IMG/VR virus record: IMGVR_UViG_3300037418_001222 | DNA length: 64,000 bases | Source of the DNA: a virus | Taxonomy: Duplodnaviria; Heunggongvirae; Uroviricota; Caudoviricetes | Strand: one strand, 5' to 3' | Shown: positions 10,758 to 27,239 of the stretch, piece by piece | Layout: every line of letters starts with the position of its first letter | Position numbering within the stretch: position 1 is the stretch's first letter | The notes under the pieces: generated by a model | The model's database searches: none | Seen by the model: only the letters and a program-made list of their open reading frames with translations | Told to the model about the DNA's origin: nothing | Program-made: the position numbers and the translations under genes

Positions 10758-10785
10758 ATTCTAATGGGTATGGAGGAAATGTCAA
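10758..10785 (-). promoter_or_regulatory. sigma70-type early promoter, conserved cassette (minus: TTGACA-N16-TAGAAT)
   Basis: Minus strand reads TTGACAtttcctccatacccatTAGAATagg; drives the protease gene. Confidence 0.6.
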
Positions 10786-10885
10786 CAACTTTATTTTCGC
10801 CGACGAACGGACACCTGCATGGCGAGGCACAGCCCGGAGATGATCAGTAGCTCGACGACAGTGACTATTCCCATCACGGTGCTCG

Positions 10886-11086
10886 TCATAGTTCGACTCC
10901 TCTCTCCACGATTCCGAACCCGACCGAGTCGTCACCCCAGTCGATGAGAACGACTTCTAAGCCGAGGTTTTTCAGGATACGATCGACTTCCTCCAGCGTT
11001 CCACGAGGATCAGTCTTCCAATCGACCGCGCTCTGGAACTTTGGAGTCCTATCGAGTCCGACTTCTTGGACATTGACCTCTCTCAT
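10886..11086 (-). CDS. hypothetical protein (66 aa)
   Basis: ORF with RBS AGGAGG directly after the cassette promoter. Confidence 0.4.
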   Translation of the reverse strand: MREVNVQEVGLDRTPKFQSAVDWKTDPRGTLEEVDRILKNLGLEVVLIDWGDDSVGFGIVERGVEL

Positions 11087-11106
11087 CGGCCACCTCCTAT
11101 TATCAG

Positions 11107-11136
11107 AATACTAATCTGACGGTGGAGAAATGTCAA
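11107..11136 (-). promoter_or_regulatory. sigma70-type early promoter cassette (TTGACA-N17-TAGTAT)
   Basis: Minus: TTGACAtttctccaccgtcagatTAGTATtctgataataGGAGG. Confidence 0.6.
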
Positions 11137-11151
11137 CGGCTTTATTTTTGT

Positions 11152-11466
11152 TTATGCCGGAGTGAACTCGTCCTCTTCGTCGTTCAGGAAGAACTTCACG
11201 ATCGAGTAGTCATACTCGGAATCGCTCCTCTTATCCTCGGATCGAGTGTCAAAGATGCGACATCCCGAGTCGTATCCTCGTCCTCCAATCTCGACGAGAC
11301 GAATCTCCCAGAGCGCTCGAACCCAACCCTGTCGACCCCATGAGTCGAGGTAGTCGTACACCTCCTCCTTCGCCTCGCTCAGCGTCTCTCGCTGAAAGTC
11401 GTGAGATCGGTGACCACGATAGTTGTCCGGATCGTACACACAATACAGCAGTAGAAATCGTCTCAT
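11152..11466 (-). CDS. hypothetical protein (104 aa)
   Basis: ORF, GC-rich. Confidence 0.45.
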   Translation of the reverse strand: MRRFLLLYCVYDPDNYRGHRSHDFQRETLSEAKEEVYDYLDSWGRQGWVRALWEIRLVEIGGRGYDSGCRIFDTRSEDKRSDSEYDYSIVKFFLNDEEDEFTPA

Positions 11467-11870
11467 GATACCTCTCCTGGTAGCCTACGACCAATCGTTC
11501 CATCGATGAGCTCGACGGACTGGACGTAGGTGTGCTGAAACAACCAACGAAAGAAGTCCTCGGGGTCGTGCCACGCTCCAGGAACCGGATCGAGCATCAC
11601 GACTACTTCGAGCTTCATCGTCGACGCGATCGGTGACACCGGGTAAGCGTTCGGGTTCTTCCTAGCCATAGCAATCGAACCTCCTCTCAGCATCGCCATC
11701 TCGTAGCACCGAAATATGGCGGTAGCCTCTCCATCAATCCCAGCCTCATCGAACTGTCGGAGCGCGTCCGGAACATTCTTCGCGGTGCACATCCACAGAT
11801 CCGAATCGGCTCCATAGACGATTAGATACGTGCTCTCTTCTTCCATGTCTACCTCTCCTATCCAATACAC
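11463..11870 (-). CDS. hypothetical protein (135 aa)
   Basis: ORF; 4-nt ATGA overlap with the downstream gene. Confidence 0.5.
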   Translation of the reverse strand: MYWIGEVDMEEESTYLIVYGADSDLWMCTAKNVPDALRQFDEAGIDGEATAIFRCYEMAMLRGGSIAMARKNPNAYPVSPIASTMKLEVVVMLDPVPGAWHDPEDFFRWLFQHTYVQSVELIDGTIGRRLPGEVS

Positions 11871-11872
11871 CC

Positions 11873-11901
11873 ACTCTAATAGGCGCTGGATGAAATGTCA
11901 A
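11873..11901 (-). promoter_or_regulatory. sigma70-type early promoter cassette (TTGACA-N17-TAGAGT)
   Basis: Minus: cgccTATTGACAtttcatccagcgcctatTAGAGTgggtgtattggataGGAGAGG. Confidence 0.55.
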
Positions 11902-11910
11902 TAGGCGATG

Positions 11911-12258
11911 TTATAACCAAGTAGCGCAACAGCGAGGATCCTCGCTGTACTTGATCCATCGCTTCACGAAACCGTTGCCGAACGTCATCGCTCCTTCCTC
12001 TCCATCGAGGCTCGGGCTCGTCCACCAGAATGCTCCTCGAGGCTCGCAGCGCAGCACATTGATGGCGATGATTTCCGCGGTCTTACCACCGCTGTGCGGA
12101 TTAAAACCAGGATCATAATGCAGTCGTAGCAGCGCCTCGCAGAACGTGTCGACCTCATCCTTGTGGATGATCTCCTTGTTGTAGGAGTTGCTGTTCTGAA
12201 AGAGATACTCGACGATGCAGAAGTCGCTGACAGGGAGCGAAGAATAATCTGGTCTCAT
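11911..12258 (-). CDS. hypothetical protein (115 aa)
   Basis: ORF. Confidence 0.5.
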   Translation of the reverse strand: MRPDYSSLPVSDFCIVEYLFQNSNSYNKEIIHKDEVDTFCEALLRLHYDPGFNPHSGGKTAEIIAINVLRCEPRGAFWWTSPSLDGEEGAMTFGNGFVKRWIKYSEDPRCCATWL

Positions 12259-12385
12259 GTCTACCTCTCCTTAGAAGAGTGGTGGCCGACGGGAACAGGG
12301 AAACGCCAACCACCACTCATCGAAAGAGAGTCGAAGCTCGAAGGAGGGTCGGGGTCGAGACTCCGTAGCCCCGACCCCTTCCCCA

Positions 12386-12691
12386 TTAGCGACCGAGCTC
12401 GAAGGGCTGGGTCAGTTCGATGAAGCCGTGAGCCGCATCGTGACGGACGTCGTCCATCCGATAGCCGGCGGCGAACAGCGCGGCGACGGTGACGGGCTTT
12501 CCCTTCGCGGCCTTGCAGGCCTTGATGAGAGCATCGTACCGCACCGCCGAAGCCGAACCGGGCTTCTTGGGGTTGGTGGAACCCTTTTCCGTCAGGGTGA
12601 CCGTCGACCCTTCGCGCCACTGGGTGCGCTTCGACTTGGTCTCGGCCTCGGCATTCTCGATCACTTCCGCTTCGTTGGTCTTCGGCATTTC
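12386..12691 (-). CDS. hypothetical protein (101 aa), second member of the NPKKPGS paralog family; start trimmed from the ORF-track 13063 because that ORF reads through the promoter
   Basis: RBS aaaAGGAGGtaagtgaaATG (MPKTNEAEV...); ...NPKKPGSASAVRYDAL...GYRMDDVRHDAAHGFIEL. Confidence 0.5.
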   Translation of the reverse strand, partial: EMPKTNEAEVIENAEAETKSKRTQWREGSTVTLTEKGSTNPKKPGSASAVRYDALIKACKAAKGKPVTVAALFAAGYRMDDVRHDAAHGFIELTQPFELGR

Positions 12692-12737
12692 ACTTACCTC
12701 CTTTTCCGCATCGGGGTAATTCCCAATCGGTATGATC

Positions 12738-12765
12738 AGTCTATACAAACCGGAAGAAATGTCAA
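12738..12765 (-). promoter_or_regulatory. sigma70-type early promoter cassette (TTGACA-N16-TAGACT)
   Basis: Minus: gttaTTGACAtttcttccggtttgtaTAGACTgatc. Confidence 0.5.
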
Positions 12766-12865
12766 TAACTTTTTTTTCGATATTGAAGATACTGCTACCG
12801 TCGAAGATTCCCCTTATACACGCGCGGACGTAATTCCTTTTATCTACACGCGAAGGCCTACTAGT

Positions 12866-12988
12866 GTCGTCGTCTCGGCTATCATTTCTATATACGCGAG
12901 ACGACGACAGTACACGCCGAGCGAGCGAGCGAGCGAGCGTACAGCCGTCTCGCGACGAGCGTACTGATGATGGGTCTCGCGACGAGCG
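12866..12988. repeat. non-coding repeat block: 13-bp perfect inverted repeat, (GAGC)5 microsatellite, 15-bp direct repeat x2
   Basis: TGTCGTCGTCTCG (12866-12878) / CGAGACGACGACA (12897-12909); gagcgagcgagcgagcgagcg at 12919-12939; GTCTCGCGACGAGCG at 12947-12961 and 12974-12988. Confidence 0.6.
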
Positions 12989-13122
12989 AGCTGAAAGATT
13001 TTGTTCGATGATGTGTGAGTGAGCGAACAGCGCCGCGAGCGTCTCATTGAGTTGGATGGCCACGTCGAGCGATCATACGTGGGAGCGAGCGAGATGACGG
13101 TTGTTTTCATAACAGGGATTCT

Positions 13123-13282
13123 TAACCATGTGGTTTAATTACAACCTGAAGTTCTTTCTTCAGCTCATCGATTTCTTGTCTCTGTCGTATTATAGTACGA
13201 GCCATCGATACGATATGTCCTGGATGCACGCTCGTTAGTCCGTCTAGAGACTTCGCTATCGTCGCTACAGCATTATCGGTCA
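13123..13282 (-). CDS. hypothetical small protein (52 aa; not in ORF track)
   Basis: Hand-translated MTDNAVATIAKSLDGLTSVHPGHIVSMARTIIRQRQEIDELKKELQVVIKPHG; start overlaps the upstream stop. Confidence 0.25.
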
Positions 13283-13570
13283 TCGATTCTTCTTCCATAC
13301 CGTCTTATCGAACCACGAGCGCATCTGTTTCAACTTACGGAGAGATGGCATTCGATAGAATCTGACAGGATTTCCATATTCGTTATATGGTTCGTGACGG
13401 AAGCCGTATGTTCCTTTGTAGTCGATTTCTTTGATCTCGGAGACGTGATAAGTTCGTTCGTGTTTCCAGACGTCGATTACGACTACGTGAGACTCGTCTA
13501 CACAGCGAACTACGCGTCCCGGTATGAATAGGTCTTCTCCACCGACGTCGACTATCGTGTTTCGCCTCAT
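13280..13570 (-). CDS. hypothetical protein (96 aa)
   Basis: ORF. Confidence 0.45.
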   Translation of the reverse strand: MRRNTIVDVGGEDLFIPGRVVRCVDESHVVVIDVWKHERTYHVSEIKEIDYKGTYGFRHEPYNEYGNPVRFYRMPSLRKLKQMRSWFDKTVWKKNR

Positions 13571-13848
13571 GAGTTACTCGATAGCTTGTTCTCAACGGCA
13601 TCCGCGAGCTCGCCGAACGTGCTCTTGTTGAGTATGTATCTTGGCGGATCGGGGATCATTCGATAGCATCCGTCGAAGCCTCTCCAATCATCCGGACCGA
13701 CGTTTGGATCGTCACTTCGCCCTGTCTCTTTCAGGAACTGAGCCATGGCACATCTCTCGGGAGAGAGGTAGTTGTACTTCTCGTCTCTGGGCTTCGTCTT
13801 CACCCAGTCCAAGAACTCTCGCGCCGTAAAGTCGAGGTTGGCCATCGT
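13567..13848 (-). CDS. hypothetical protein (93 aa; start trimmed to the RBS-preceded ATG)
   Basis: aaAGGAGAaagaacgATG (MANLDFTAREF...). Confidence 0.45.
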   Translation of the reverse strand, partial: TMANLDFTAREFLDWVKTKPRDEKYNYLSPERCAMAQFLKETGRSDDPNVGPDDWRGFDGCYRMIPDPPRYILNKSTFGELADAVENKLSSNS

Positions 13849-13927
13849 TCTTTCTCCTTTTCCTACTCTCCGAACTTCTCTTGGATCGTTAGAGTTCTCG
13901 AGGATTTGATAAGTCTTGCTCGGCATA

Positions 13928-14395
13928 TTAAACCTCATGGTTAAGTGTTCTCGAGTTCCGGTTGTTCGTTTGATTCCTCCGAATCCACTGGTTCGCTTCA
14001 TCTTCGCTGATGAAGCCACGCCAAGTGATTTCGTCGACCCTCACTCGACTCATGAGACCAGAGCGACGACCGCACGCTGGACATGAAGCTGACATCTCGT
14101 AGATGTACCAGCGTTCATCTGTCCCATGAAATACCGTCTGATATTGAACGGCAGGAGCACCAGGTCGGTTAATGACTCTAGGTAGCTCTCGAGCGTTTGA
14201 TTGAAGGATAAATCCAGAAGCCGCCATGATCATACACGACGTCTCTCGATATTTCTTTACGTACTCGATTGGAGCTCGAACCTCGAGACCCCCGTCAAAA
14301 GACGGACCGTCGATAACGACTACCTCTTCTCCTGTCGACCAAACAACCGGTTTATCCCAGTCTACTGGTTCGACGGGATTCTTGAAGTCGATCAT
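13928..14395 (-). CDS. hypothetical protein (155 aa)
   Basis: ORF. Confidence 0.5.
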   Translation of the reverse strand: MIDFKNPVEPVDWDKPVVWSTGEEVVVIDGPSFDGGLEVRAPIEYVKKYRETSCMIMAASGFILQSNARELPRVINRPGAPAVQYQTVFHGTDERWYIYEMSASCPACGRRSGLMSRVRVDEITWRGFISEDEANQWIRRNQTNNRNSRTLNHEV

Positions 14396-14409
14396 CGCTT
14401 AGGTCCTTC

Positions 14410-14754
14410 TTATAGCATCTTCTCGATGTAGTCGGCGATCTCTTCGAACGTCTTTCCTTGGTCGTTCATATCGGCGAGTCTGTTTACAATGGTGGCTCTA
14501 TATGATCCGTCTCGAGCCGGTGGTGGGAGTCCTACTGAAGCGCATAATTCGTCAGGAGGTAATGAGCAATTACCATCACACATACGATAACCATCGTAAA
14601 AATTTTCGTCCCATTTTCCGGCGACATCAACAAGGACACCCAGGCAGCACATCTTATTACTGCCTGCCATAGCGAGGTGTCCATCGAGTTGTGTGTACTC
14701 TCCAGAACGAAGAGCCGATACCCACTTCGCTTTGATCTCCGGGTTCATTGGCAT
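14410..14754 (-). CDS. hypothetical protein (114 aa), paralog of 5945-6325; start trimmed because the ORF-track start lies inside the promoter
   Basis: AGGTGGtctgaaaATG; KWVSALRSGEYTQ...CCLGVL...NDQGKTFEEIADYIE. Confidence 0.5.
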   Translation of the reverse strand: MPMNPEIKAKWVSALRSGEYTQLDGHLAMAGSNKMCCLGVLVDVAGKWDENFYDGYRMCDGNCSLPPDELCASVGLPPPARDGSYRATIVNRLADMNDQGKTFEEIADYIEKML

Positions 14755-14779
14755 TTTCAGACCACCTCCTATTATCAGT

Positions 14780-14809
14780 ATTCTAATCTGATAATGAGAA
14801 AATGTCAAT
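14780..14809 (-). promoter_or_regulatory. sigma70-type early promoter cassette with embedded stem-loop (TTGACA-N17-TAGAAT)
   Basis: Minus: gcctaTTGACAttttctcattatcagatTAGAATactgataataGGAGGTGG; ATTATCAG/CTGATAAT inverted repeat brackets the -10. Confidence 0.65.
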
Positions 14810-14814
14810 AGGCA

Positions 14815-15027
14815 CTATTTCGGTTGATACCAGCCGGCCAGGATCATCGCTCGATCCCATTTCTCTCTATTGTCTTTGCTCAGTGCCGGTAGAAATGGAT
14901 GTTGACCATTTCTCTCGTAAGTAATGGAATCGACATAAGCTTTCGACCTCGGTTTATATCGTTTGCAGATGATATTGTCTCCATCCACTTCGAATTCGAG
15001 ATGAAAGCGAGGTGCTTCGTCTCTCAT
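14815..15027 (-). CDS. hypothetical protein (70 aa)
   Basis: ORF. Confidence 0.4.
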   Translation of the reverse strand: MRDEAPRFHLEFEVDGDNIICKRYKPRSKAYVDSITYERNGQHPFLPALSKDNREKWDRAMILAGWYQPK

Positions 15028-15175
15028 GATAGAGTCTCCAGCGATTTCTTGAGTTTGTTTTTATTTTGACATAGAAGAGGAAAGTTGTGGCGATGACGAG
15101 CTTCTGCTAGAGATCCAATACGAAGTCTCTTACCGCAAAGGCATTTCGTATATTCAGACCAGTGGCGGCGGGCGC

Positions 15176-15478
15176 TCATTTTTCGTCCCTCAGATCTTCA
15201 GTGACTTCGAATGTTCCACCCCTCTGTAAACAGAGTTGAATGAAGCAATCCTTGCACACGCTCATCGAGCCGAGTATTCCATCATCTGACTTTGTTTCAG
15301 TCACAATGAGCTCGGGTTTATTTCTGCACCGCCACATTCTGTCACTTCGGCGCGCACCACCCACTTTCTCGCCCGTCACCGGATTTTCTCCAGCCGGTCC
15401 AAACGCGAATGGCGACCACGTCTTATTGGGACGTAGTGCCTGACACTGAGTACGATCAGGCGGTGTAAGATCTGTCAT
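15176..15478 (-). CDS. hypothetical Cys-rich protein (100 aa)
   Basis: ORF. Confidence 0.45.
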   Translation of the reverse strand: MTDLTPPDRTQCQALRPNKTWSPFAFGPAGENPVTGEKVGGARRSDRMWRCRNKPELIVTETKSDDGILGSMSVCKDCFIQLCLQRGGTFEVTEDLRDEK

Positions 15479-15744
15479 GATATTCCCTCGAATAGAGTAG
15501 CCTCGAGCGCCTCACCGACCGTGATCGCATCTGGTTCGACCCAGTCGCCGTTGGCCTCCTGAACGAGTATCGTCTTTCCGGTGAGACTGAGTCGATCATC
15601 GAGGATCATCATCATTTCAGAAATGTTCGTCCCGACGATAACATCGACTGTAATCCAACAGTCCATAATGAACTGCAAGACACAGACCATAATACCACCA
15701 TCGTCTAGCTTCGTGGCCGTGACCCGATACGTAATATTATTCAT
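15475..15744 (-). CDS. hypothetical protein (89 aa; start trimmed to MNNITYR with GGAGG RBS)
   Basis: cgaggcGGAGGccagcATGaataat; removes the 89-nt overlap with the upstream ORF. Confidence 0.45.
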   Translation of the reverse strand: MNNITYRVTATKLDDGGIMVCVLQFIMDCWITVDVIVGTNISEMMMILDDRLSLTGKTILVQEANGDWVEPDAITVGEALEATLFEGIS

Positions 15745-16135
15745 GCTGGCCTCCGCCTCGATAGCCTCCCGGCATCTCGTCATCCTCATCTGGTTGGAAG
15801 CAGTCGGTATACAGCTTCGCCTCACTTAGGCGATCCTTCACGATTTCGATTCCGATCTTCTCGAGGGCCTCATCGAGTGTCTGGAACTCACCCAAGTCCT
15901 GAGAGTCATATTCGGCAGGATGTTCGTATGTTTGATATGAGATCTGGACGTCTTTGGATACCAACCATCCGGTCTGCTCGTCGAAGCATTTCGATTCCGG
16001 AGGCCACAGTTGATAGTTGTTCGATATCCTATAAGATCCTTCCTCGTCAGAGAACGCGACCTCGCCGAGCCACATATATTCGGCGAAGGTGCCTATGAAG
16101 AGCTTGTCGCGCTCTTTCTGCTTCTCGTCTCTCAT
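15737..16135 (-). CDS. hypothetical acidic protein (132 aa)
   Basis: ORF. Confidence 0.5.
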   Translation of the reverse strand: MRDEKQKERDKLFIGTFAEYMWLGEVAFSDEEGSYRISNNYQLWPPESKCFDEQTGWLVSKDVQISYQTYEHPAEYDSQDLGEFQTLDEALEKIGIEIVKDRLSEAKLYTDCFQPDEDDEMPGGYRGGGQHE

Positions 16136-16437
16136 CGGATGCTCGTCCTCTTTATGATATCGAGGACGACCGCTGCGAATCGTTCTTTTGGATTGTCGAG
16201 ATCGTCTCTGAGATAAAAGTCGTCTATCGCGAGTTGGAAGAAGCTTCCGATGCCGAATCCACTTTCAGTGATTCGACCACAGATAAAACCATAGGCCTCA
16301 CCATCTTTTGATGTTGTCCATACATCAGCGGAAATGGGATAGTTGTCACGATTCCTTGTCTCGTCAAGAACGAAGCCATTCTTTTCGAGAGCACTCTTCG
16401 CCGTATCGTAGGCGATATCACTAATCGTATATCTCAT
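16132..16437 (-). CDS. hypothetical protein (101 aa)
   Basis: ORF directly after the cassette promoter. Confidence 0.5.
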   Translation of the reverse strand: MRYTISDIAYDTAKSALEKNGFVLDETRNRDNYPISADVWTTSKDGEAYGFICGRITESGFGIGSFFQLAIDDFYLRDDLDNPKERFAAVVLDIIKRTSIR

Positions 16438-16459
16438 TTACCACCTCCTATTATCAGAT

Positions 16460-16489
16460 ATTCTAATCCGACTAAGAGAAAATGTCAAT
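16460..16489 (-). promoter_or_regulatory. sigma70-type early promoter cassette (TTGACA-N17-TAGAAT)
   Basis: Minus: cgcctaTTGACAttttctcttagtcggatTAGAATatctgataataGGAGGTGG. Confidence 0.65.
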
Positions 16490-16495
16490 AGGCGA

Positions 16496-16780
16496 TTACA
16501 TGAACCGCGATAGAGCGAATCCAATCGCCCAGATCACCGCGATTTTAAAGATTGGAGCAAGGACACCAACCACATCCTCGTTAGAGTCTTTATTTGGAAC
16601 ATCTTGATGCGTTAAAAAACTCATGATGAGTGCCATTCCGATGCCCTGAACGACATGAATTGGACTTACATGGAGAGGAACTACAAACCAGTTCCATAGA
16701 GATGTTAGAACGAGCCCTCGAAATAGTGCGATCAACACACCATAAGCGATGATAGCAAGCATCACTAATACGAACGGCAT
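16496..16780 (-). CDS. membrane protein (94 aa, 3 TM)
   Basis: Hydrophobic ORF. Confidence 0.5.
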   Translation of the reverse strand: MPFVLVMLAIIAYGVLIALFRGLVLTSLWNWFVVPLHVSPIHVVQGIGMALIMSFLTHQDVPNKDSNEDVVGVLAPIFKIAVIWAIGFALSRFM

Positions 16781-16781
16781 T

Positions 16782-17321
16782 TTACCCTCCTACTTCTTCC
16801 TTCGTTGTAAGAAACTTCTGATACTCGGCCATTTTCTCTTTCATTTGGCTTTTGTTAAGCTTGTTGCTGCTGAAATAGTTGAGGAAGATTGGAGTACCGC
16901 CGGCGAGGATATACCTAATTCTGGCAGCCGCTCCCTGTGGAGTGTTATCACACTCTGACCAGTCACTAGAGAATAAGAAATGCCAACATTCAGGCTGATA
17001 TTCATAATTGGTAGGATGACAGCCGAATACTCTCGCTGAGTAGTCATTCCAATCGATTTCAGAGTAAGAATCGAATAGTTCGGAACGACGTAGTTTAATT
17101 CCTGCTGCCGGCCCATGCCCCACCGCGCATGCCACGGTTCCACAATTTTGTATGTATTCTTGTGTGTGCCCCTCTTGAAGAATTTCTTCGGGATCTTCAC
17201 CACAATCTCCATCATGGCCAAGGTACGTAGCCATGTCGAAGTGGGTGTAATCGGGTGGAAGCGAGTCGAGATAATTCGCTAGCGTCTCAAGATTTCTTTT
17301 CTGAGCTTTCGTCAGTTTCAT
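16782..17321 (-). CDS. hypothetical protein (179 aa)
   Basis: ORF. Confidence 0.5.
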   Translation of the reverse strand: MKLTKAQKRNLETLANYLDSLPPDYTHFDMATYLGHDGDCGEDPEEILQEGHTQEYIQNCGTVACAVGHGPAAGIKLRRSELFDSYSEIDWNDYSARVFGCHPTNYEYQPECWHFLFSSDWSECDNTPQGAAARIRYILAGGTPIFLNYFSSNKLNKSQMKEKMAEYQKFLTTKEEVGG

Positions 17322-17332
17322 AATTGTTCTCC

Positions 17333-20776: not shown

Positions 20777-21010
20777 AGGGCTTTTATTTTGTTTGTCCTT
20801 GCTTCTCGACTTGTTCTTGAGGTAGTTCTTACCGAGTCGAATAAATGGCTTGGTGATCGCCATGAAGATGACTCCATCACCACCACAAGCGCAACACGGC
20901 CACCAGATCATTGGTTTGAATGTTATGAGGCTACCAGAGCCTCCACATAGTCGACATATCATGAGACATGCAACCATTCCACAGTAAACCACTGATTGGG
21001 AATTCTGCAC
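20774..21010 (-). CDS. hypothetical Cys-rich small protein (78 aa)
   Basis: ORF; overlaps 20959-21216 by 52 nt in another frame. Confidence 0.35.
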   Translation of the reverse strand: MQNSQSVVYCGMVACLMICRLCGGSGSLITFKPMIWWPCCACGGDGVIFMAITKPFIRLGKNYLKNKSRSKDKQNKSP

Positions 21011-21216
21011 GACAAGATATCAGAGAGAATACTGTTTGTGTAGTCTCTCATTTCAGCAGCTGGAGAAGCTCCAATCCAATCTTGAAAACGGTCACCATAT
21101 TCAGCACCGGAAGAGCGAAGAGTATATCCTCGCTCTTCCATGATATCTTTAACGAGTTTATCGCTTCGTGCTGACTTGATATCGTCGGGTTCAACGGGTC
21201 GGCTAATTCTAATCAT
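20959..21216 (-). CDS. hypothetical protein (85 aa)
   Basis: ORF. Confidence 0.4.
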   Translation of the reverse strand: MIRISRPVEPDDIKSARSDKLVKDIMEERGYTLRSSGAEYGDRFQDWIGASPAAEMRDYTNSILSDILSCRIPNQWFTVEWLHVS

Positions 21217-21464
21217 CCCCCGAATCTCCTATCAATGAATAAGATGGGTTGCCGGACCGACACCAACCAGATCTACCGGCAACCCCAGCTCTCCAGTCGG
21301 TTGATTCCATCTAACCGAGAGCTGTTTTCTATTCATAAGGTCGGCACGGCCTCCAAGGCGCTATCCTTGATATCAAATACTCTGCCGATGAGTACATGCG
21401 GATCTTTTTCTTTAAGACAAAAGATCACATGGTTCTTCTGGTCCCTATCTTGTTCTCCTTCTCC

Positions 21465-21632
21465 TTATGAGAGCGCCACTCCAACCGGATTTCCATTGAA
21501 GCGCTGAATTACACCAAATCGATGACTCTCCCACCGAGTAGACTCTAATGGAGCCGCGATATAGCTGATACTGGGATGACGGCTCAGTGAATTAAGAACC
21601 GAAGCCCTTCTTTCCGCTCTCTTCTGATCCAT
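21465..21632 (-). CDS. hypothetical small protein (55 aa; not in ORF track)
   Basis: GGAGGTGGttggagattATG after promoter 21669-21697; hand-translated MDQKRAERRASVLNSLSRHPSISYIAAPLESTRWESHRFGVIQRFNGNPVGVALS. Confidence 0.3.
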   Translation of the reverse strand: MDQKRAERRASVLNSLSRHPSISYIAAPLESTRWESHRFGVIQRFNGNPVGVALS

Positions 21633-21668
21633 AATCTCCAACCACCTCCAATAATGAATTCTCTTAAA

Positions 21669-21697
21669 AATCTAATCCAAGCAGGAGAAAATGTCAA
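21669..21697 (-). promoter_or_regulatory. sigma70-type early promoter cassette (TTGACA-N16-TAGATT)
   Basis: Minus: gcctaTTGACAttttctcctgcttggatTAGATTtttaag. Confidence 0.55.
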
Positions 21698-21706
21698 TAG
21701 GCATTT

Positions 21707-22018
21707 TCATGCCGCTTTAGACTTGATCAGCTGAACGTGACCAGACTCACAGGCTCGCTCGACTATCTCCTGGATGTCGTCGAAGTGCTTTGCAAGCTCA
21801 TTAACAATCTCTAATTTTGGAACCTGAGCAAGCAATAAGTCGACAGTCTCCTCGATTGCTAGAGAGGCTACCTGATGGGCCTTCATCGCTTTGTCCAAGA
21901 TCATCCAATTATCACACGACGGATTCTCTCTGAACGCATTAGAAGCATTAGAGAGATACTGGCCAGTGATCTCGGTGGCGTACGCACGAACTCCCATTAG
22001 ATAACCTCCCTTATTCAA
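21707..22018 (-). CDS. hypothetical protein (103 aa)
   Basis: ORF. Confidence 0.5.
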   Translation of the reverse strand: MNKGGYLMGVRAYATEITGQYLSNASNAFRENPSCDNWMILDKAMKAHQVASLAIEETVDLLLAQVPKLEIVNELAKHFDDIQEIVERACESGHVQLIKSKAA

Positions 22019-22579
22019 CTAAGCCGAAACCCTGGATGATTTGATGCGTGATGGTGTACAACCGATAGAAGAAGCTGAGCTTTCTAGAGGCTTCTTCTTC
22101 TCCGGTGCTTTATATGGCTCGAGAACTTCTAACATATGGAAGTCGATCCAGTCTCCTCCCTTTAGCTCCCCATTCGAGGCCTCGGGAACAACGAGAGCCT
22201 GTGGTGCATTGTATGATAGAGTAACTGCCAAGTGAGTCACACGCCCAACTAATCCAGTCGTGTAGTCTTTGACTTTATCTCCAAGATTGATCGTATTCGG
22301 AGGAATTTCGTTTTTGTGCCGTTCAGGATGCGCTTGAACGAGTTCGAGACGAGTGCCAGGATATGATTCTATAGTTGTCCTTTTAAGAGCACTCTGTTCG
22401 CCTTTTACATCGATTAGCAGATCAATTGTGAAGGTGTCGCATCCAGAAATATGGAAATCTCGTTTGACCAAGATGCCTTGAATGCTTGGATTGAAGATAT
22501 CCCGAACTTCATCACCCAACTTAAAGTTCCAGGCCTGTGATCCTGGCGTTGGAATGTTTGGAATGAACTTCTTAGTCAT
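22019..22579 (-). CDS. hypothetical protein (186 aa)
   Basis: ORF. Confidence 0.5.
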   Translation of the reverse strand: MTKKFIPNIPTPGSQAWNFKLGDEVRDIFNPSIQGILVKRDFHISGCDTFTIDLLIDVKGEQSALKRTTIESYPGTRLELVQAHPERHKNEIPPNTINLGDKVKDYTTGLVGRVTHLAVTLSYNAPQALVVPEASNGELKGGDWIDFHMLEVLEPYKAPEKKKPLESSASSIGCTPSRIKSSRVSA

Positions 22580-22594
22580 CGTCCTCTCCTTTGG

Positions 22595-22771
22595 TTAAAG
22601 CGATTGGTACTTGGATCGAGTTCCATTCGTAGATGCGAACCTGTCAAATGGAGAGCGATTGTTGTCACTCTCCTTGGCTGTTGGAAACAGCGTCTTGGCC
22701 TTTCCTCGAGTCGGAATCTTCTTCACCTTAACTGGTTTACCGTGTTTGTCTAACAACTCCTTCTGTTCCAT
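22595..22771 (-). CDS. hypothetical small basic protein (58 aa; not in ORF track)
   Basis: GGAGGGattatcATG; hand-translated MEQKELLDKHGKPVKVKKIPTRGKAKTLFPTAKESDNNRSPFDRFASTNGTRSKYQSL. Confidence 0.3.
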   Translation of the reverse strand: MEQKELLDKHGKPVKVKKIPTRGKAKTLFPTAKESDNNRSPFDRFASTNGTRSKYQSL

Positions 22772-22842
22772 GATAATCCCTCCATCCGATTTGGTTCCCC
22801 ACTATAAACCAGATTATACTCGAAGTAAACTGCATTATCTTA

Positions 22843-23115
22843 TTACGGTAGGGGATAGAGTTCGGTGATACCATGATGGTGCAGCTCCTCGATCCGCTCG
22901 CACGAGATAAAACGAAACGCCCGTTTCCGGACGTCATAAACTGATATCAAGTTGTATTTCTTTGGATCGAATGAGAGTCCAACCCCTTTGACTCCTTTTC
23001 GAACTCCAGTTCGAGCTTGCATGAACCTCTCTTCATCATTTGTTCGTTTGATGAAGATAACGGTGAAGATCCGTCCATCTGATATCTTGGGTTCGATTTC
23101 AGCTGCTCTTGGCAT
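22843..23115 (-). CDS. hypothetical protein (90 aa)
   Basis: ORF. Confidence 0.45.
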   Translation of the reverse strand: MPRAAEIEPKISDGRIFTVIFIKRTNDEERFMQARTGVRKGVKGVGLSFDPKKYNLISVYDVRKRAFRFISCERIEELHHHGITELYPLP

Positions 23116-23449
23116 TATCCACCAAATGCAATGTCATTCGAACTTCGAGTATACGATCAATTTTTTCAACAAGATGGAGAGGATCTATTTTCATCGGGCA
23201 TTTCATATCGAGATCGGTGGAGAGAAGCCAAGTATGGCATTCAATCAACCACATCTTCATCTCATTGAGAAGGTTATTCTCGGCAAGAAATTCATCTGCC
23301 ATTTTCTGTTGTTTAGCTGGTTCCGGAGTAGGGAAGAATACTCGTCTCATCTCTAGGAGACAATCATGATAACCCTGTTGATAGTCGCTATCAGGTGGAT
23401 CTTTCTCGCCAAGTGCAATCATGTCGTTAAGATATTCTTCGAGATCCAT
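23099..23449 (-). CDS. hypothetical protein (116 aa; start trimmed to MDLEEY)
   Basis: atGGAGGTGGaaATGgatctc after promoter 23469-23497. Confidence 0.5.
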   Translation of the reverse strand: MDLEEYLNDMIALGEKDPPDSDYQQGYHDCLLEMRRVFFPTPEPAKQQKMADEFLAENNLLNEMKMWLIECHTWLLSTDLDMKCPMKIDPLHLVEKIDRILEVRMTLHLVDNAKSS

Positions 23450-23468
23450 TTCCACCTCCATTTTCTCT

Positions 23469-23497
23469 ATCTTAATTCGATTATAAGAAAATGTCAA
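23469..23497 (-). promoter_or_regulatory. sigma70-type early promoter cassette (TTGACA-N17-TAAGAT)
   Basis: Minus: gaaaTTGACAttttcttataatcgaatTAAGATagag. Confidence 0.55.
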
Positions 23498-23499
23498 TT

Positions 23500-23700
23500 T
23501 CAAATTATTTGCGGAGTGAGCTTCTCCTCACCGATCCATGATCGGCCCTTCTTGTAGATCGAGTAGTATTCGTAAGGCTGGTTCATGGCGTTCACATGAG
23601 ATCCAGCCTTACGAAGTCTAATCTCGTTTTCATTCTCGTGATACTTGATCGTATATCCAAGCTTATACGACTGAGTAATGAGCGATGCTTTGCTAGCCAT
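23500..23700 (-). CDS. hypothetical protein (66 aa)
   Basis: ORF. Confidence 0.45.
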   Translation of the reverse strand: MASKASLITQSYKLGYTIKYHENENEIRLRKAGSHVNAMNQPYEYYSIYKKGRSWIGEEKLTPQII

Positions 23701-23712
23701 TAATCCCCCAGT

Positions 23713-23949
23713 TCATTTGCTCAGATTCGGATTCGGGTGATGTGGTTCAACCCAGAGGACACGATCAAAGTACGAGAAATGTGCTCCTCCTGGAGGAGCA
23801 CCATAGTTTGCAGCATTGATGATTATCTCCGCTATAGACTTAGGATCAGACGCGAAATCATCCCAGTATTCTTGACCTCGAAGAGTAAGACATTTCGTGT
23901 CTGCATCATCAACTGAAATGCCATACCGATTTCCTTGTCTGATCGTCAT
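23713..23949 (-). CDS. hypothetical protein (78 aa; start trimmed to MTIRQG)
   Basis: GGTGGGAGttcgggtaATGacg after promoter 23994-24021. Confidence 0.45.
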   Translation of the reverse strand: MTIRQGNRYGISVDDADTKCLTLRGQEYWDDFASDPKSIAEIIINAANYGAPPGGAHFSYFDRVLWVEPHHPNPNLSK

Positions 23950-23993
23950 TACCCGAACTCCCACCGAGATGAAACATATCTCCCATGACTAGA

Positions 23994-24021
23994 ATACTAA
24001 ACTATTCGTTACAAAATGTCA
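23994..24021 (-). promoter_or_regulatory. sigma70-type early promoter cassette (TTGACA-N16-TAGTAT)
   Basis: Minus: gcccTTGACAttttgtaacgaatagtTTAGTATtcta. Confidence 0.55.
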
Positions 24022-24774
24022 AGGGCTTTTATACGGTTCGCCTTCAACCCATAATATATCTATCGGTGCTCCTTGAGAGTCATCGAATACCCCAATAGCA
24101 AGACGGCCTGTATACCAAGCAAAAGTATCTAGATCAGTACGACCACTTAGGAGAATTGGACCCTTAGCCCACTGTTCGTGTCCATGAACGATGTGTTTAT
24201 CATAGTTGGCATCCTTGTGAATACCGGACATCTCATCTGGCCACTTCCAGTTCTCATCGAAACAATACCAGGTGAGTTCATCTACATCGTGATTGGCTGC
24301 AGGTTTCCCCCTCTTCAAACCACCAGCGTGAACAAACACTTGCTTATCAGTCTCAATATAAAATGGAAGTGAGTATATCCACGCCAGGTCCTCTTTGAGA
24401 GATCCTTTTAGTGGCATGAGAGCATCGCCATCTTCATATCCATATGACATGAGAGTGGTATATCCACCATTCCCCATCCACCATGTAAGAGAAGCGCCTC
24501 CGGTGCAGCACCTAAACATCATGTCTTCGTGATTACCACGAATAACTTTGAGTGGAAGAACGGTCAATTCTGGATACTTAGACTCGTTGTCTAGTATCTC
24601 TTGCATCGTCTTAATGATTCCGGCGGACTCTGGACCTCGATCGACAAAGTCACCTAAGACGATAAACTGAGATTCTGGTCGGCCCCTGTTAGACCAATCA
24701 GCAAGCGCTTTGGATCGCGCCTTCGTAAAGAGATCGAGACGACCATGAAGATCGCCAATAGCGTATGTTATCAT
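24019..24774 (-). CDS. Ser/Thr protein phosphatase (PPP family, lambda-PPase-like metallophosphoesterase)
   Basis: GDLHG, GDFVDRG and GNHE phosphoesterase motifs in order. Confidence 0.8.
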   Translation of the reverse strand: MITYAIGDLHGRLDLFTKARSKALADWSNRGRPESQFIVLGDFVDRGPESAGIIKTMQEILDNESKYPELTVLPLKVIRGNHEDMMFRCCTGGASLTWWMGNGGYTTLMSYGYEDGDALMPLKGSLKEDLAWIYSLPFYIETDKQVFVHAGGLKRGKPAANHDVDELTWYCFDENWKWPDEMSGIHKDANYDKHIVHGHEQWAKGPILLSGRTDLDTFAWYTGRLAIGVFDDSQGAPIDILWVEGEPYKSP

Positions 24775-24953
24775 TTTTGAACTCGAACATTTGGAAAGAA
24801 TTTTTGGATCAATTCTTCAGAACATTTGTCTCCGGTTGGCCCATATCTCTCGAAAAATTTGTCGCACATACTACACCCATCTCTTGGCCGATGATAGAAA
24901 TTACAGAATGGGTGATGGAGATATTTCTCGCTAAATGGAATGAACTCGCTCAC
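24771..24953 (-). CDS. hypothetical Cys/His-rich small protein (60 aa)
   Basis: ORF, ATGA overlap. Confidence 0.4.
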   Translation of the reverse strand: MSEFIPFSEKYLHHPFCNFYHRPRDGCSMCDKFFERYGPTGDKCSEELIQKFFPNVRVQK

Positions 24954-25201
24954 AGTGGCTGCTTGTAAGTGTAGACGTTCTGCTTATTGCGAACATCAAA
25001 GGTCTCGCCGTTGATTGTAACCTTGTCGGCTACTCTATCTCCAGTCTCCTGAATGCTCTGAAGCACGGGAAGGGTTTGACTGAACATATATCCATCGTTG
25101 TCTTCTTTGTCGAAGTTCTCAATGGTAATGGTCTTATCACCGTGATCGATGTAAGTCATCGTCCAGACGACTCCGCCGACATTGATGCATGCTTTATTCA
25201 T
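24950..25201 (-). CDS. hypothetical protein (83 aa)
   Basis: ORF. Confidence 0.45.
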   Translation of the reverse strand: MNKACINVGGVVWTMTYIDHGDKTITIENFDKEDNDGYMFSQTLPVLQSIQETGDRVADKVTINGETFDVRNKQNVYTYKQPL

Positions 25202-25535
25202 GCTTTTTATCCTGAGTTAGTTTGTTTGATAGTGTTTGGGTGGCGAGCAGAACCATAGATGGGGTGGTACCGTGCTCGCCACCCGCTGCTCGTCGCCGGG
25301 AGGTGGTGGAGGGTGGCGACGAGCAGTTTCGAAAAACTTCGATAACCGACTTCCAATGATTATCGTTCGCCGGTTGATATTTCTTTACTCGAGAGAAACT
25401 CGATAATACTCCATTCTCTATCACTCGTACAGCCGGTGAGTCATTATCACCACCATACACGATGAGAACCGCTCTAACCATACTATCGAGCACACAGTCT
25501 CCATCAGAAAGAGGACTATATATTGTTTCCATCAA
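25194..25535 (-). CDS. hypothetical protein; ORF reads through a GC-rich twin-hairpin element, true extent uncertain
   Basis: The C-terminal third (SSPPSTTSRRRAAGGEHGTT) is encoded by the palindromic GC-rich segment 25238-25326. Confidence 0.3.
   Translation of the reverse strand: MMETIYSPLSDGDCVLDSMVRAVLIVYGGDNDSPAVRVIENGVLSSFSRVKKYQPANDNHWKSVIEVFRNCSSPPSTTSRRRAAGGEHGTTPSMVLLATQTLSNKLTQDKKHE
25238..25326. repeat. GC-rich twin palindrome (two 12-bp perfect stems) embedded in AT-rich sequence
   Basis: GGGTGGCGAGCA (25238-25249) / TGCTCGCCACCC (25273-25284); CTGCTCGTCGCC (25286-25297) / GGCGACGAGCAG (25315-25326). About 70% GC against about 40% flanks. Confidence 0.6.
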
Positions 25536-25543
25536 AATGTCAA
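25515..25543 (-). promoter_or_regulatory. sigma70-type early promoter (TTGACA-N17-TATAGT)
   Basis: Minus: ccTTGACAttttgatggaaacaataTATAGTcctc. Confidence 0.5.
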
Positions 25544-25738
25544 GGAATTTTTACTCGCTCCAATCTGATTGACGGTAACAATGAATTTCGAGCCATCTTT
25601 CCAATACAGCAGAAACTCATTATAGTCAAGGGGTTCCACTCGACTAACAAGAGGAATCTTTTCGAGAGTCGTGTGAGCAAGGCGGCGGGTGATACCTGCC
25701 TCGTTCTCATGCTGTCTTTCGAATTTCACTTCGCTCAC
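25532..25738 (-). CDS. hypothetical protein (68 aa, GTG start)
   Basis: ataGGAGatactGTGagcgaa after promoter 25760-25788. Confidence 0.4.
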   Translation of the reverse strand: MSEVKFERQHENEAGITRRLAHTTLEKIPLVSRVEPLDYNEFLLYWKDGSKFIVTVNQIGASKNSLTF

Positions 25739-25759
25739 ACAGTATCTCCTATTCTGAGT

Positions 25760-25788
25760 ATTCTAATTCACCCAGAATAAAACGTCAA
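25760..25788 (-). promoter_or_regulatory. sigma70-type early promoter cassette with stem-loop (TTGACG-N17-TAGAAT)
   Basis: Minus: cgcctaTTGACGttttattctgggtgaatTAGAATactcagaataGGAG; TATTCTG/CAGAATA stem. Confidence 0.6.
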
Positions 25789-25802
25789 TAGGCGTTTTTC
25801 AG

Positions 25803-26948
25803 TCATTCTTCGGGTCCGTATTCGATTAGAGCTCGCACAAACCCATTCTGTGTGATCGACAAGATACACGCGTCACCGTGTCTCTTCTTGTAGCTGTTCA
25901 CCAGCTCGATAGCCCTCTTAAACGAGATCTTCATCTTCTCTTCTTGTTCATTCTCTTCGGTCTGAACAATTGGAGGGATGAGTGTAATCGCTTCAGTCGC
26001 AGGAGGTAGTTCCTGTTTCGCCTCACGATGAACCTGAGTCGTCTTTTTCGAAGACTCTATCATCTCTGGCCCGGTAAGCTCTTCTCGCTTCTCCTTATCT
26101 TTTCCACGAATGATGGGAGGTTCTCGATTTTCTGGAACTCGAAAGTAGAATGAGTCGTCATCCTGCCTGACTAATCTCGCATTAGTCGCTCGGAACATAC
26201 CCAGAGCCGAAGCTCCCGAAACATTTTGTTTGGTCATCATCAGAGTAAATTGCGTATGAGCCGAGTCATATGACCCAGAAGCAATTCCTGCCGATTTCTG
26301 TTTTCCTGGTGGAAGCTTCGCTCTCGATACTCGAATGACCGGCTCCTCCTGAGGTGAGTCTTGAATGAGCTCAAGAGACCAGTGACCGCTTGGTTTGAAG
26401 TTGTCCTTGTTAACAAAGGCCTCGAACATCGGAGAGTCCATAGGAACATAAAATGATATATTCCTATCGTTGATTCCAATCTTGGCGTCCATATGAGCTC
26501 CTATTGCTATCTGTGGTAGCGGATCGAGTGGTACTACTTTAGAGAAATGGCGATGTATCTGCTGTTGGAGACTCGATGTATGTGAGGCTTCCTTGCGATG
26601 TGGAGTCTTCCGTCCACTCTCGACGCACTTGGGACATCTCCTTTTTCGAGTGTCCCATCCTTTCTTTTGTAGTTTTTTACGAATAACTTCTGGTGGATAT
26701 CTCTTGGAGATATGCCACTCTTGATCGTCTGTACATGTAGAGCACTCAAGATATACTACTGTAATACCTCCGGGTGCGTCTTTGTATCTAATTGGATGAT
26801 CGAGATGTATGGCGTGTGCTACGGCGCCCGCCCATCCAGCGTCCACCATTACGATAATCTCCCCCAGTCGCAGCCACACTGTTTGCATTTCCATCGACCA
26901 GTATTTGCCTCTAAGTGTGCTCCGGCTGGACCACATCTTAGAATACAT
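25803..26948 (-). CDS. hypothetical protein (381 aa; zinc-finger-like CxxC...CPKC N-terminal region)
   Basis: Long ORF; internal ORF-track calls at 26240-26479 and 26534-26749 are alternate frames. Confidence 0.55.
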   Translation of the reverse strand: MYSKMWSSRSTLRGKYWSMEMQTVWLRLGEIIVMVDAGWAGAVAHAIHLDHPIRYKDAPGGITVVYLECSTCTDDQEWHISKRYPPEVIRKKLQKKGWDTRKRRCPKCVESGRKTPHRKEASHTSSLQQQIHRHFSKVVPLDPLPQIAIGAHMDAKIGINDRNISFYVPMDSPMFEAFVNKDNFKPSGHWSLELIQDSPQEEPVIRVSRAKLPPGKQKSAGIASGSYDSAHTQFTLMMTKQNVSGASALGMFRATNARLVRQDDDSFYFRVPENREPPIIRGKDKEKREELTGPEMIESSKKTTQVHREAKQELPPATEAITLIPPIVQTEENEQEEKMKISFKRAIELVNSYKKRHGDACILSITQNGFVRALIEYGPEE

Positions 26949-27012
26949 TTGGTTCGATTAAATTTCGTGGATACGAATCGAATGCACTTATCGATTTTTT
27001 CTCGCATTTCGA

Positions 27013-27183
27013 TTAATCCATATGAAGAGAGTGGCCGTCATCATTCATCGACCTGATGTGTCGATGATTGTTCCTCTCGAGTGATCCTCTCACTCTCATC
27101 ATTCCGATTGGGGAGATCTGGCGAGGAAGCCGAATTCGAAAGATATGTCCGTACTGGTTTACGGATTCAACGATAATGTCCAT
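27013..27183 (-). CDS. hypothetical small protein (56 aa; not in ORF track)
   Basis: ccatGGAGGTGGattgATG after promoter 27211-27239; hand-translated MDIIVESVNQYGHIFRIRLPRQISPIGMMRVRGSLERNNHRHIRSMNDDGHSLHMD. Confidence 0.3.
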   Translation of the reverse strand: MDIIVESVNQYGHIFRIRLPRQISPIGMMRVRGSLERNNHRHIRSMNDDGHSLHMD

Positions 27184-27210
27184 CAATCCACCTCCATGGT
27201 TTGTAAGGAT

Positions 27211-27239
27211 ATCTTATTAACTTGATAGGAAAATGTCAA
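27211..27239 (-). promoter_or_regulatory. sigma70-type early promoter cassette (TTGACA-N17-TAAGAT)
   Basis: Minus: gcctaTTGACAttttcctatcaagttaaTAAGATatcc. Confidence 0.55.

Follow-up and report, generated by a model that had tools for sequence, protein, structure and literature searches.

Promoter-early stem-loop (PeSL) elements were defined in phages RB49 and phi1 as composite cassettes consisting of a stop codon in an A/T-rich stretch, sigma70 boxes, a stem-loop, a Shine-Dalgarno sequence (SD) and an ATG (Arbiol et al. 2010, PMC2839356). The stem-loop may stand between the boxes, overlie one of them or lie close by, 'overlapping the -10 box' being among the commonest arrangements, and the elements sit in hyperplastic regions (PMC2839356). 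For RB49, terminator activity of one PeSL and mini-circles have been shown (PMC2839356). Lineage-specific PeSLs, located in hyperplastic regions and near indels, are also known from the Vibrio phages nt-1/KVP40 and from PST/T4 (Comeau et al. 2014, PMC4122927), and in the T4 genes e, soc, 49 and I-TevI the ribosome site is sequestered in read-through RNA, with the promoter located within the hairpin (review PMC3014915). In this study, we explored a 64,000-nt stretch of viral DNA (IMG/VR record IMGVR_UViG_3300037418_001222; hereafter the window), in which 15 repeated promoter cassettes on the minus strand head operons of small genes. We consider it very probable that these cassettes are sigma70-type early promoters of PeSL anatomy. 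As the best overall explanation, which we regard as likely, early cassettes of PeSL design would combine with a hairpin on read-through RNA and with identity patches at which crossovers could occur. The family is a further lineage-specific example of PeSLs, the device itself having already been described in RB49.

In the window, we counted 11 matches to the pattern TTGACA-N16/17-TAnnAT, compared to 0.56 +/- 0.72 in shuffled sequence, where no shuffle reached 11; eight of the 11 are minus-strand matches located between 10.7 and 27.3 kb. With the relaxed pattern TTGAC[AG]TTT, we obtained 15 co-oriented minus-strand sites from 10785 to 27239. The T of TTGACA, by whose position the cassettes are named here, is located at 27239, 25788, 25543, 24022, 23497, 21697, 20777, 19339, 17596, 16488, 14808, 12765, 11901, 11136 and 10785. 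A preliminary description of the same DNA had counted sixteen sites between 10.7 and 27.3 kb; the array is real, with 15 sites instead of sixteen, and candidates for a sixteenth are the doubtful 21235 (TTGATA-N18) or 9637, which lies beyond that range. All 15 cassettes have -35 and -10 boxes near the sigma70 consensus (TTGAC[AG], a 16-17 nt spacer, TAnnnT) and a GGAG-type SD 3-12 nt before a start codon, which in each case opens an open reading frame (ORF) of at least 57 codons. Read in order, a cassette is composed of an A-rich stretch with the upstream stop codon, TTGACRTTT, N13-14, TAnnnT, a strong SD and the start codon. The upstream context is AAAATAAAGCC or GAAAATGCCTA, with TAA, TGA or TAG 3-12 nt before the -35 box, and the predicted leaders measure 13-21 nt in most copies.

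Upon alignment, the 15 cassettes agree without exception in TTGAC.TTT and, within the -10, in its T, A and final T, while the upstream A-rich stretch, GCCTA/AAAGCCC, the spacer start TTTTCTC and AGGAGGTGG are common to most copies. A repeat search grouped 11 copies into one 44-nt family with 61-100% identity, and the longest exact strings common to cassettes span 17-25 nt. The invariant TTT, the pyrimidine-rich spacer start, GCCTA/AAAGCCC and the shared SD make the copies more alike than independent sigma70 promoters. The earlier characterization as near-identical over ~55 bp was nevertheless overstated, since the best pair (P11136/P14808) reaches 83% over 47 nt and ungapped pairwise identity over 62 nt is mostly 40-70%. 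Likewise, AATAGGAGGTGG, which had been named as a cassette element, is exact at four sites, with variant SDs in the others. In terms of density, 15 copies fall within 17 kb of ORFans, compared to about eight weaker ones in the other 47 kb. Rfam contains no family matching the cassettes.

The same type of cassette was found in three related phages. A search with a 348-aa early protein returned one relative, P0002, at 46% identity, leading to phage B (L128-L133), in which synteny with the window extends from the genes for the ligase and the collagen fibre into the early array. Phage C (L134, 54% GC) and phage D (L142) were obtained by a further search with a 181-aa protein. The profile scan of relatives that the preliminary description had proposed returned cassettes in B, C and D with differing flanking ORFs: a profile built from the window alone gave 18 hits in 35 kb of the three relatives, 17 of them on the early-gene strand at called cassettes and the eighteenth on the opposite strand, heading the ligase gene of B. 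Phage B additionally has an equivalent hairpin and T-run before its first cassette. Outside these relatives, the cassette consensus gave chance hits only against INPHARED (blastn mode), and no deposited phage showed sequence similarity. When IMG/VR was scanned for exact matches to two cassette patterns, each contig that was hit contained one unrelated match, and of two scans of JGI metagenome contigs the first had 0 hits and the second 17, all of them single, unrelated and without protein similarity. Loci reached via the NinI-like phosphatase belonged to unrelated phages at 37% identity, and the loci of the more distant homologs P0012 and P0014 (L135-L141) were without a cassette; both sets were set aside.

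The window cassettes agree with the RB49/phi1 definition of PeSLs in every point accessible to sequence comparison, as had been proposed. The likeness to RB49 and phi1 extends to the order of parts, to repetition on the coding strand within a hyperplastic block of ORFans and to gene turnover between relatives. However, the RB49 copies examined carry a GC-rich, nearly invariant palindrome, GGGGATC...GATCCCC, wholly within the spacer and followed by a U-rich -10, their leaders are about 30 nt long, and at none of 14 sites does the SD pair with the spacer (same pipeline). In the window, by contrast, stems are rich in A/U and G·U, vary from copy to copy, enclose the -10 and abut or include the SD behind leaders of 13-21 nt. 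With nt-1/KVP40 and PST/T4 the window shares a lineage-specific version of the same composite cassette in distant T4-like branches, but there the stem-loop, interpreted as a terminator, immediately precedes the promoter, and the -35 is TTTACW or TTGYVH (PMC4122927). Since the previous stop codon stands 3-12 nt before the -35 box, the window cassettes leave no room for such an upstream stem.

The minus-strand stretch from 27.3 to 10.2 kb appears to be the main hyperplastic early region of the phage and is T4-type in appearance. A simple SD-guided gene call yielded 49 genes from the first cassette to 10183, arranged in order as operons of 3, 1, 4, 2, 6, 3, 3, 5, 3, 6, 5, 3, 2, 2 and 1 genes. Cassettes fill intergenic gaps of 58-69 nt, plus one long gap before 12765, while nearly all other junctions are overlaps of the ATGA type or gaps of a few bases. 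The idea that each cassette heads one small gene was therefore wrong, since 13 of 15 head operons of two to six genes joined by ATGA-type overlaps. A terminator scan returned terminator-like sites only at the two ends of the array. An intrinsic terminator at 27264..27290 (minus strand; 12-bp stem, 7 GC pairs, then TTTTGTTGTT) lies just upstream of the first cassette, and a terminator-like hairpin at 10052..10078 (11-bp stem, 7 GC pairs, T-run on the plus strand) is located where the array, whose last gene W50 ends at 10183, converges with a plus-strand small-gene cluster. The array proteins are almost all ORFans, except for a NinI-like phosphatase, a trypsin-like protease and a few PHROGs of unknown function; a search of 35 small proteins gave no significant Pfam hit and three PHROG hits.

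Stable stem-loops are present in about 10 of the 15 window copies (all coordinates in this and the following paragraph are on the minus strand). The hairpin is clear, with the -10 in the loop and z between -1.9 and -4.2, at five cassettes. P25788 (25739..25802; TTGACG-N17-TAGAAT), which heads the single gene W05, forms a 14-bp hairpin with dG -13.7 and z=-4.2, and contains the inverted repeat TATTCTG/CAGAATA. P19339 (19291..19354; TTGACA-N17-TAGATT, AATAGGAGGTGG), heading the five genes W24-W28, forms an 11-bp hairpin with dG -13.1 and z=-3.9, and contains the repeat CTCATAATC/GATTATGAG. At P16488 (16438..16502; TTGACA-N17-TAGAAT, AATAGGAGGTGG; six genes, W32-W37) the outer stem includes the SD (z=-2.7), and P11901 (11847..11914; TTGACA-N17-TAGAGT; two genes, W46-W47) reaches dG -15.9 and z=-3.5 with many G·U pairs. 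In P11136 (11087..11151; TTGACA-N17-TAGTAT, AATAGGAGGTGG), which heads W48-W49 (53-56% GC), CCACC pairs with GGTGG of the SD.

Weaker hairpins were found at P20777 (20729..20792; TTGACG-N17-TAAGAT; three genes, W21-W23), with an 8-bp inner stem and outer pairing to the SD, at P17596 (17543..17611; TTGACA-N17-TAAGAT; three genes, W29-W31; dG -12.7), at P14808 (14755..14822; TTGACA-N17-TAGAAT, AATAGGAGGTGG; five genes, W38-W42), our reference copy, which contains the third of the proposed inverted repeats, ATTATCAG/CTGATAAT, at P10785 (10732..10800; TTGACA-N16-TAGAAT; one gene, W50), the last of the array, where CCTCC pairs with the GGAGG SD, and at P12765 (12689..12780; TTGACA-N16-TAGACT), which precedes the GC-rich genes W43-W45 with a structured leader of about 43-45 nt. 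P23497 (23450..23511; TTGACA-N17-TAAGAT, GGAGGTGG; six genes, W12-W17) has a weak hairpin at z=-0.6. No hairpin was found at four cassettes: P27239 (27187..27253; TTGACA-N17-TAAGAT, GGAGGTGG, TTG start; three genes, W02-W04), the first of the array, shows none that is significant (z=+0.8 to +1.0) and has a 25-nt exact repeat in common with P21697 (21642..21712; TTGACA-N17-TAGATT, GGAGGTGG; three genes, W18-W20); at P25543 (25494..25558; TTGACA-N17-TATAGT; four genes, W06-W09) the -35 overlaps the end of W05 and no hairpin spans the -10; and at P24022 (23950..24036; TTGACA-N17-TAGTAT; two genes, W10-W11) the stem around the -10 is just 5 bp (z=+0.8).

Fold tests covered the sequence that lies between the -35 box and the start codon, pooled over 32 cassettes from the window and relatives B, C and D. 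Pooled folding gave a mean z=-1.27 and a Stouffer Z=-7.2. As stems are formed in differing registers relative to the -10, an arm-swap test was performed in place of column-wise counting of covariation: native 5' and 3' arms pair with -10.09 kcal/mol compared to -8.36 kcal/mol for swapped arms (p<=5e-5), and the window copies alone give p=0.0015. The stem-loops are thus statistically real. At least five pairs enclose the -10 centre in 29 of 32 cassettes, G·U pairs amount to 84 of 413 (20%), and the sense strand is more stable than the antisense strand in 23 of 32, by 3.0 kcal/mol on average. Because the arms co-vary copy by copy, a nucleic-acid structure is favoured over a protein-binding palindrome, and the share of G·U pairs together with the more stable sense strand indicates RNA of coding sense. 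Such a hairpin would form only in RNA begun upstream, since the transcript of the cassette's own promoter starts inside the 3' arm. Where no co-oriented transcription arrives from upstream, the mean z is +0.17 (n=6), whereas internal cassettes average -1.37 (n=29; one-sided Mann-Whitney p=0.014). The six sites without read-through are the post-terminator first cassettes of the window and of B and the divergent 30048, 35890, 29868 and B2538. On balance, we lean towards a hairpin that is under selection and acts at the RNA level on read-through transcripts.

We propose a model in which each cassette would unite an A-rich UP-like stretch, a host sigma70 promoter (TTGACRTTT, 13-14 nt, a TAGAAT-like -10), a leader of 13-21 nt and an AGGAGGTGG-like SD. 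Host RNA polymerase would fire all promoters of the array immediately on infection, and polymerases would also run from one operon into the next, since no terminators separate the operons. In internal cassettes, the spacer and the first bases past the -10 would constitute the arms of a hairpin with the -10 hexamer as its loop, while the pyrimidine-rich spacer start is predicted to pair also with the SD in about three quarters of the cassettes. On read-through RNA this hairpin could bring about attenuation, mark the RNA for processing or mask the first SD of the operon, and the output of each operon would then be set mainly by its own promoter. Patches of 17-25 bp identity could additionally serve as crossover points at which a recombination-proficient T4-type phage gains, loses or swaps promoter-plus-gene modules.

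The last of the three hairpin roles can be formulated as a specific version of the hairpin step in this model, in competition with attenuation or processing: the sole selected function of the hairpin would be translational insulation as in T4 e, soc, 49 and I-TevI, hiding the first SD of the operon. Transcripts from the operon's own promoter, lacking the 5' arm, would be translated, and coupling would silence the whole operon on read-through RNA; the ATGA overlaps between genes inside operons fit such coupling. Precedent exists in T4, where a promoter is located inside an inhibitory hairpin (PMC3014915), and the likeness to gene e lies in the promoter being situated in the region of the 5' arm, so that a long RNA can cover the ribosome site and a short one cannot. 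However, the T4 cases concern late promoters of single genes that are harmful if expressed early, with measured inhibition (PMC3014915), while the window presents early promoters in an array, with predicted masking that is not clearly above background. At least three SD nucleotides are paired to the spacer in 24 of 32 minimum-energy folds, compared to 11.6 +/- 2.6 of 32 when spacers are replaced by random genomic 17-mers, and anti-SD strings are found within spacers (CCACC/GGTGG at 11136, CCTCC/GGAGG at 10785, TCCACCT/AGGTGGA in relative D). Yet shuffled spacers still give 20.4 +/- 2.4 of 32, so that the pairing stems from the pyrimidine-rich composition of the spacer and not from its arrangement; it is also seen in first-in-array cassettes, where no read-through arrives, and the strongest hairpin (19339) leaves the SD unpaired. 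The predicted unpaired probability of the SD is 0.24 in read-through RNA of the 32 cassettes and 0.52 in the cassette's own transcript (p=3e-6), a comparison of long with short RNA that is biased, since any truncation increases predicted accessibility. Internal ribosome sites reach 0.36, and the 15 window cassettes are not significantly lower (p=0.31). Masking of the T4 gene e type would therefore be geometrically possible in these folds. As the hairpin's sole selected function we consider it rather unlikely, and we are slightly more doubtful still that the stem-loop is no terminator at all and instead a portable translational insulator built into the promoter, with the spacer doubling as the anti-SD arm. 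If this were true, each module would give equal output wherever it stands in the array and modules would become freely exchangeable between phages, which would amount to a general design rule for hyperplastic regions, unlike the terminator-based isolation proposed for RB49 PeSLs.

Exchange of modules is suggested by comparison with the relatives. Gene by gene, the order is conserved with many insertions, deletions and replacements, and for about half of the genes neither B nor C has a counterpart. P20777 (W20777 in this comparison) and C3093 of phage C share 25 nt exactly at orthologous positions; the neighbouring proteins are 51-56% identical, while the first genes behind the two cassettes show no detectable homology. 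Orthologous cassettes are conserved far better than flanking proteins. Similarly, W17596 and B14452 have a unique 21-nt 5' half in common (AATTCGATTATTGACATTTTC) in front of non-homologous genes, the gene behind B14452 being a homolog of the one behind W20777. Between the conserved W23 and W26, the window has an extra cassette and two genes, where C is empty and the set in B is a different one, and the homolog of W30 in B is found outside the array and on the opposite strand. As crossover substrates, the window cassettes offer direct repeats of 17-25 nt. The shuffling role ascribed to the cassettes in the preliminary description is hence only suggested, by gene turnover and by the two chimeric-cassette cases, and not by any enrichment of breaks at cassette junctions; that cassettes mediate module exchange we hold to be plausible at close to even chance, without favouring it.

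Several observations weigh against the overall explanation of PeSL-type cassettes with a read-through hairpin and crossover patches, in addition to the shuffled-spacer, first-in-array and accessibility results for the SD. No convincing hairpin is found in five of 15 window cassettes, and the read-through contrast comprises six control sites only, classified post hoc. The cassette hairpins are A/U-rich and followed by AAUAGGAGG, with no U-tract; judged by the GC-rich stem and U-tract of intrinsic (Rho-independent) terminators, none of them was called a terminator, and because of AAUAGGAGG in place of the U-tract the terminator role of one RB49 PeSL is not simply transferable. Of eight cassette junctions, seven coincide with synteny breaks against B, as do 11 of 17 junctions without a cassette (Fisher p=0.36), and no cassette-linked indels were found among 99%-identical B variants. 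Finally, promoter activity, early timing and read-through in the window are deduced from the sequence.

Part of this evidence favours ordinary strong promoters, whose likeness would result from tuning to the same host polymerase and ribosome, with functionless hairpins and short identities, and with gene turnover by illegitimate recombination unrelated to the cassettes. The absence of break enrichment against B, the B variants without cassette-linked indels, the five copies without hairpin and the low pairwise identity would all be expected. Such promoters do not, however, account for the copy-specific complementarity seen in the arm-swap test, nor for hairpins that are missing exactly where read-through is unexpected (p=0.014). 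Convergent tuning is insufficient to explain 21-nt and 25-nt cassette halves shared across genomes beside non-homologous genes, and the invariant TTT and the upstream GCCTA/AAAGCCC exceed what the sigma70 consensus needs. We therefore consider ordinary promoters unlikely as the whole explanation.

At its downstream end the array becomes GC-rich: W43-W50 have 53-64% GC compared to 41-51% for most of the remaining array, and W50, a trypsin-like protease (Pfam Trypsin_2) with 60% GC, has no relatives besides itself among 5.8 billion proteins. This had been taken to suggest that a phage-native promoter was recruited onto foreign ORFs, i.e. that the cassette was copied onto ORFs captured from non-phage, high-GC DNA, and P11136, which belongs to the window's own subtype (83% to P14808) and heads genes of 53-56% GC, would fit such a capture. 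However, the arms of P11901 and P10785 are closest to cassettes of the 54%-GC phage C (GCGCCYATTAGAATRGGYGTAT) and not to the window subtype, W43 has a 55% homolog in phage C (C11) behind an equivalent long-leader cassette, C4874, relative C shows that the lineage itself spans 42-54% GC, and protein and domain searches found no bacterial homologs for the GC-rich genes. The claim is thus unsupported and capture from foreign DNA quite improbable; on the simplest reading, the tail would consist of promoter-plus-gene modules exchanged among related phages of differing GC. The likeness to morons, the self-contained promoter-gene-terminator insertions of lambdoid phages, lies in autonomous expression modules placed between existing genes, and the W43 unit (12765, gene, hairpin) resembles one, but morons are scattered single insertions with unrelated promoters, while the window has a tandem array with one shared cassette.

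Three further features were observed around this tail. The long leaders (12689-12780 in the window; L134:4874-4953) each fold a hairpin of their own within the cassette's own transcript. A GC-rich hairpin follows W43 at about 12380-12330, and with it the unit resembles a self-contained moron. A 433-nt non-coding gap (12689-13121, minus strand) lies at the border between the ~45% and the ~55-60% GC part of the array; it contains many GCTCGCTCG-type repeats and a perfect 12-bp inverted repeat, GTCGTCGTCTCG...CGAGACGACGAC, and could represent a recombination scar, a regulatory element or an origin-like one.

A DNA-level element, with the repeats as operators for a dimeric phage or host regulator that shuts the early promoters or as cruciforms that aid melting, is very improbable: the repeats are centred on the -10 hexamer, the classic operator position, and the arm CTGATAAT is common to the three cassettes 14808, 16488 and 11136, but the arms otherwise differ widely yet stay complementary, where a protein site would keep its sequence, the G·U pairs would be mismatched both in DNA and in the antisense strand, it is the sense strand that is favoured, and the stem registers vary relative to the -10.

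Outside the array, cassette-type promoters are sparse. The outlying sites named in the preliminary description are present at 29868(-), 51753(-), 62462(-) and 63935(-), though weaker and with poor profile scores; the -10s at 29.8, 51.7 and 62.4 kb are the imperfect TAGAAG, TATAAA and TATAAG, and 63935(-) has a perfect TATAAT, yet gives no profile hit. The copy at 29780..29884 (minus strand; TTGACA-N17-TAGAAG, a long leader, AAAGGAGGG and ATG) is weak, with a profile E=0.99, and the one at 62427..62472 (minus strand; TTGACATTT-...-TATAAG) heads the phage's tmRNA gene. Plus-strand copies, which that description did not include, lie at 3186, 30048, 35890 and 36201. Among them, 35881..35941 (TTGACATTTTCC-...-TAGAGT), without hairpin, is the best profile hit outside the training set (E=2e-4), 36198..36230 (TTGACA-N17-TAGGAT; E=0.045) lies upstream of the gene for an ATP-dependent DNA ligase, and 3175..3220 (TTGACATTT; E=1.7e-3) heads the plus-strand small-gene cluster between 3.2 and 10 kb.

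This second small-gene cluster (3186-10041, plus strand) comprises ~20 genes with 37-45% GC and a single cassette-type promoter, at its head; its internal genes are driven by something of a different kind. Antisense to its ORFs and beyond the array terminator, a cassette-type promoter has its -35 at 9637 on the minus strand (TTGACAATT-N14-TATATT). It is followed by ~85 nt that are roughly 90% identical to relative C, while the flanking proteins are only ~50% identical. The conserved stretch, 9515-9648 (minus strand) in the window and L134:13245-13376 (plus strand) in relative C, folds in both into a long imperfect hairpin with its variable patches in loops or at G·U-compatible positions, and represents a candidate small RNA or else encodes a 17-18 aa peptide ending KGWYP.

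The source of the window is an uncultured T4-like myovirus. Caulobacter phage Cr30 and Sinorhizobium phiM12 are its closest cultured relatives, to which a gp6-type baseplate wedge protein shows only about 40% identity in a full-length comparison, and other large ORFs encode a tail-tube-type protein, a tail lysozyme, an ATP-dependent DNA ligase and a 1013-aa collagen-repeat fibre. A two-piece (permuted) alpha-proteobacterial tmRNA lies at 62132-62458 on the minus strand (Rfam RF01849, 111.6 bits; RF04321, 115.5 bits), with the tag peptide ANDNSFAGDMALAA according to ARAGORN. Because of this alpha-type tmRNA and of the SD, an alphaproteobacterial host is probable. The region has no DNA-level match among INPHARED phages (megablast), while identical sequence is present in two SRA assemblies and one 177.9-kb JGI contig.

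Of the T4 late-promoter motif TATAAATA, the window contains 4 copies compared to 3.3 expected, which is no enrichment. All four, at 39620(+), 45215(-), 51723(-) and 61226(-), lie outside the early array, each 5-113 nt upstream of a listed ORF start or of a tRNA-Arg gene, and the copy at 51.7 kb overlaps the -10 position of a cassette-type -35. ARAGORN additionally reports tRNA-Arg(tct) at 61138-61211 (minus strand), not reported by Rfam at the gathering threshold, and an 84-nt tRNA-Ile at 27022-27105 (plus strand), which overlaps minus-strand early ORFs, stays below the Rfam gathering threshold and is probably a false positive. At 52607-56271 (minus strand), a nicotinamide phosphoribosyltransferase (NAMPT) and a NadR-like cytidylyltransferase-plus-Nudix protein form a phage-borne NAD salvage pair.

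For the study of early phage genes, the cassette profile marks operon starts and thereby points to ~50 candidate early genes. The lineage also offers a cleaner natural experiment than RB49 on the function of the stem-loop in attenuation, processing or masking, since the arms vary across copies and across four relatives and hairpins are missing from sites at which read-through is not expected; this function can thus be tested with few reporter constructs. With the window and its relatives, PeSL-type cassettes are extended to a fourth, deeply divergent and uncultured T4-like branch, which supports tandem promoter cassettes as a general organising principle of fast-evolving early regions, where genes for host takeover and anti-defence reside.

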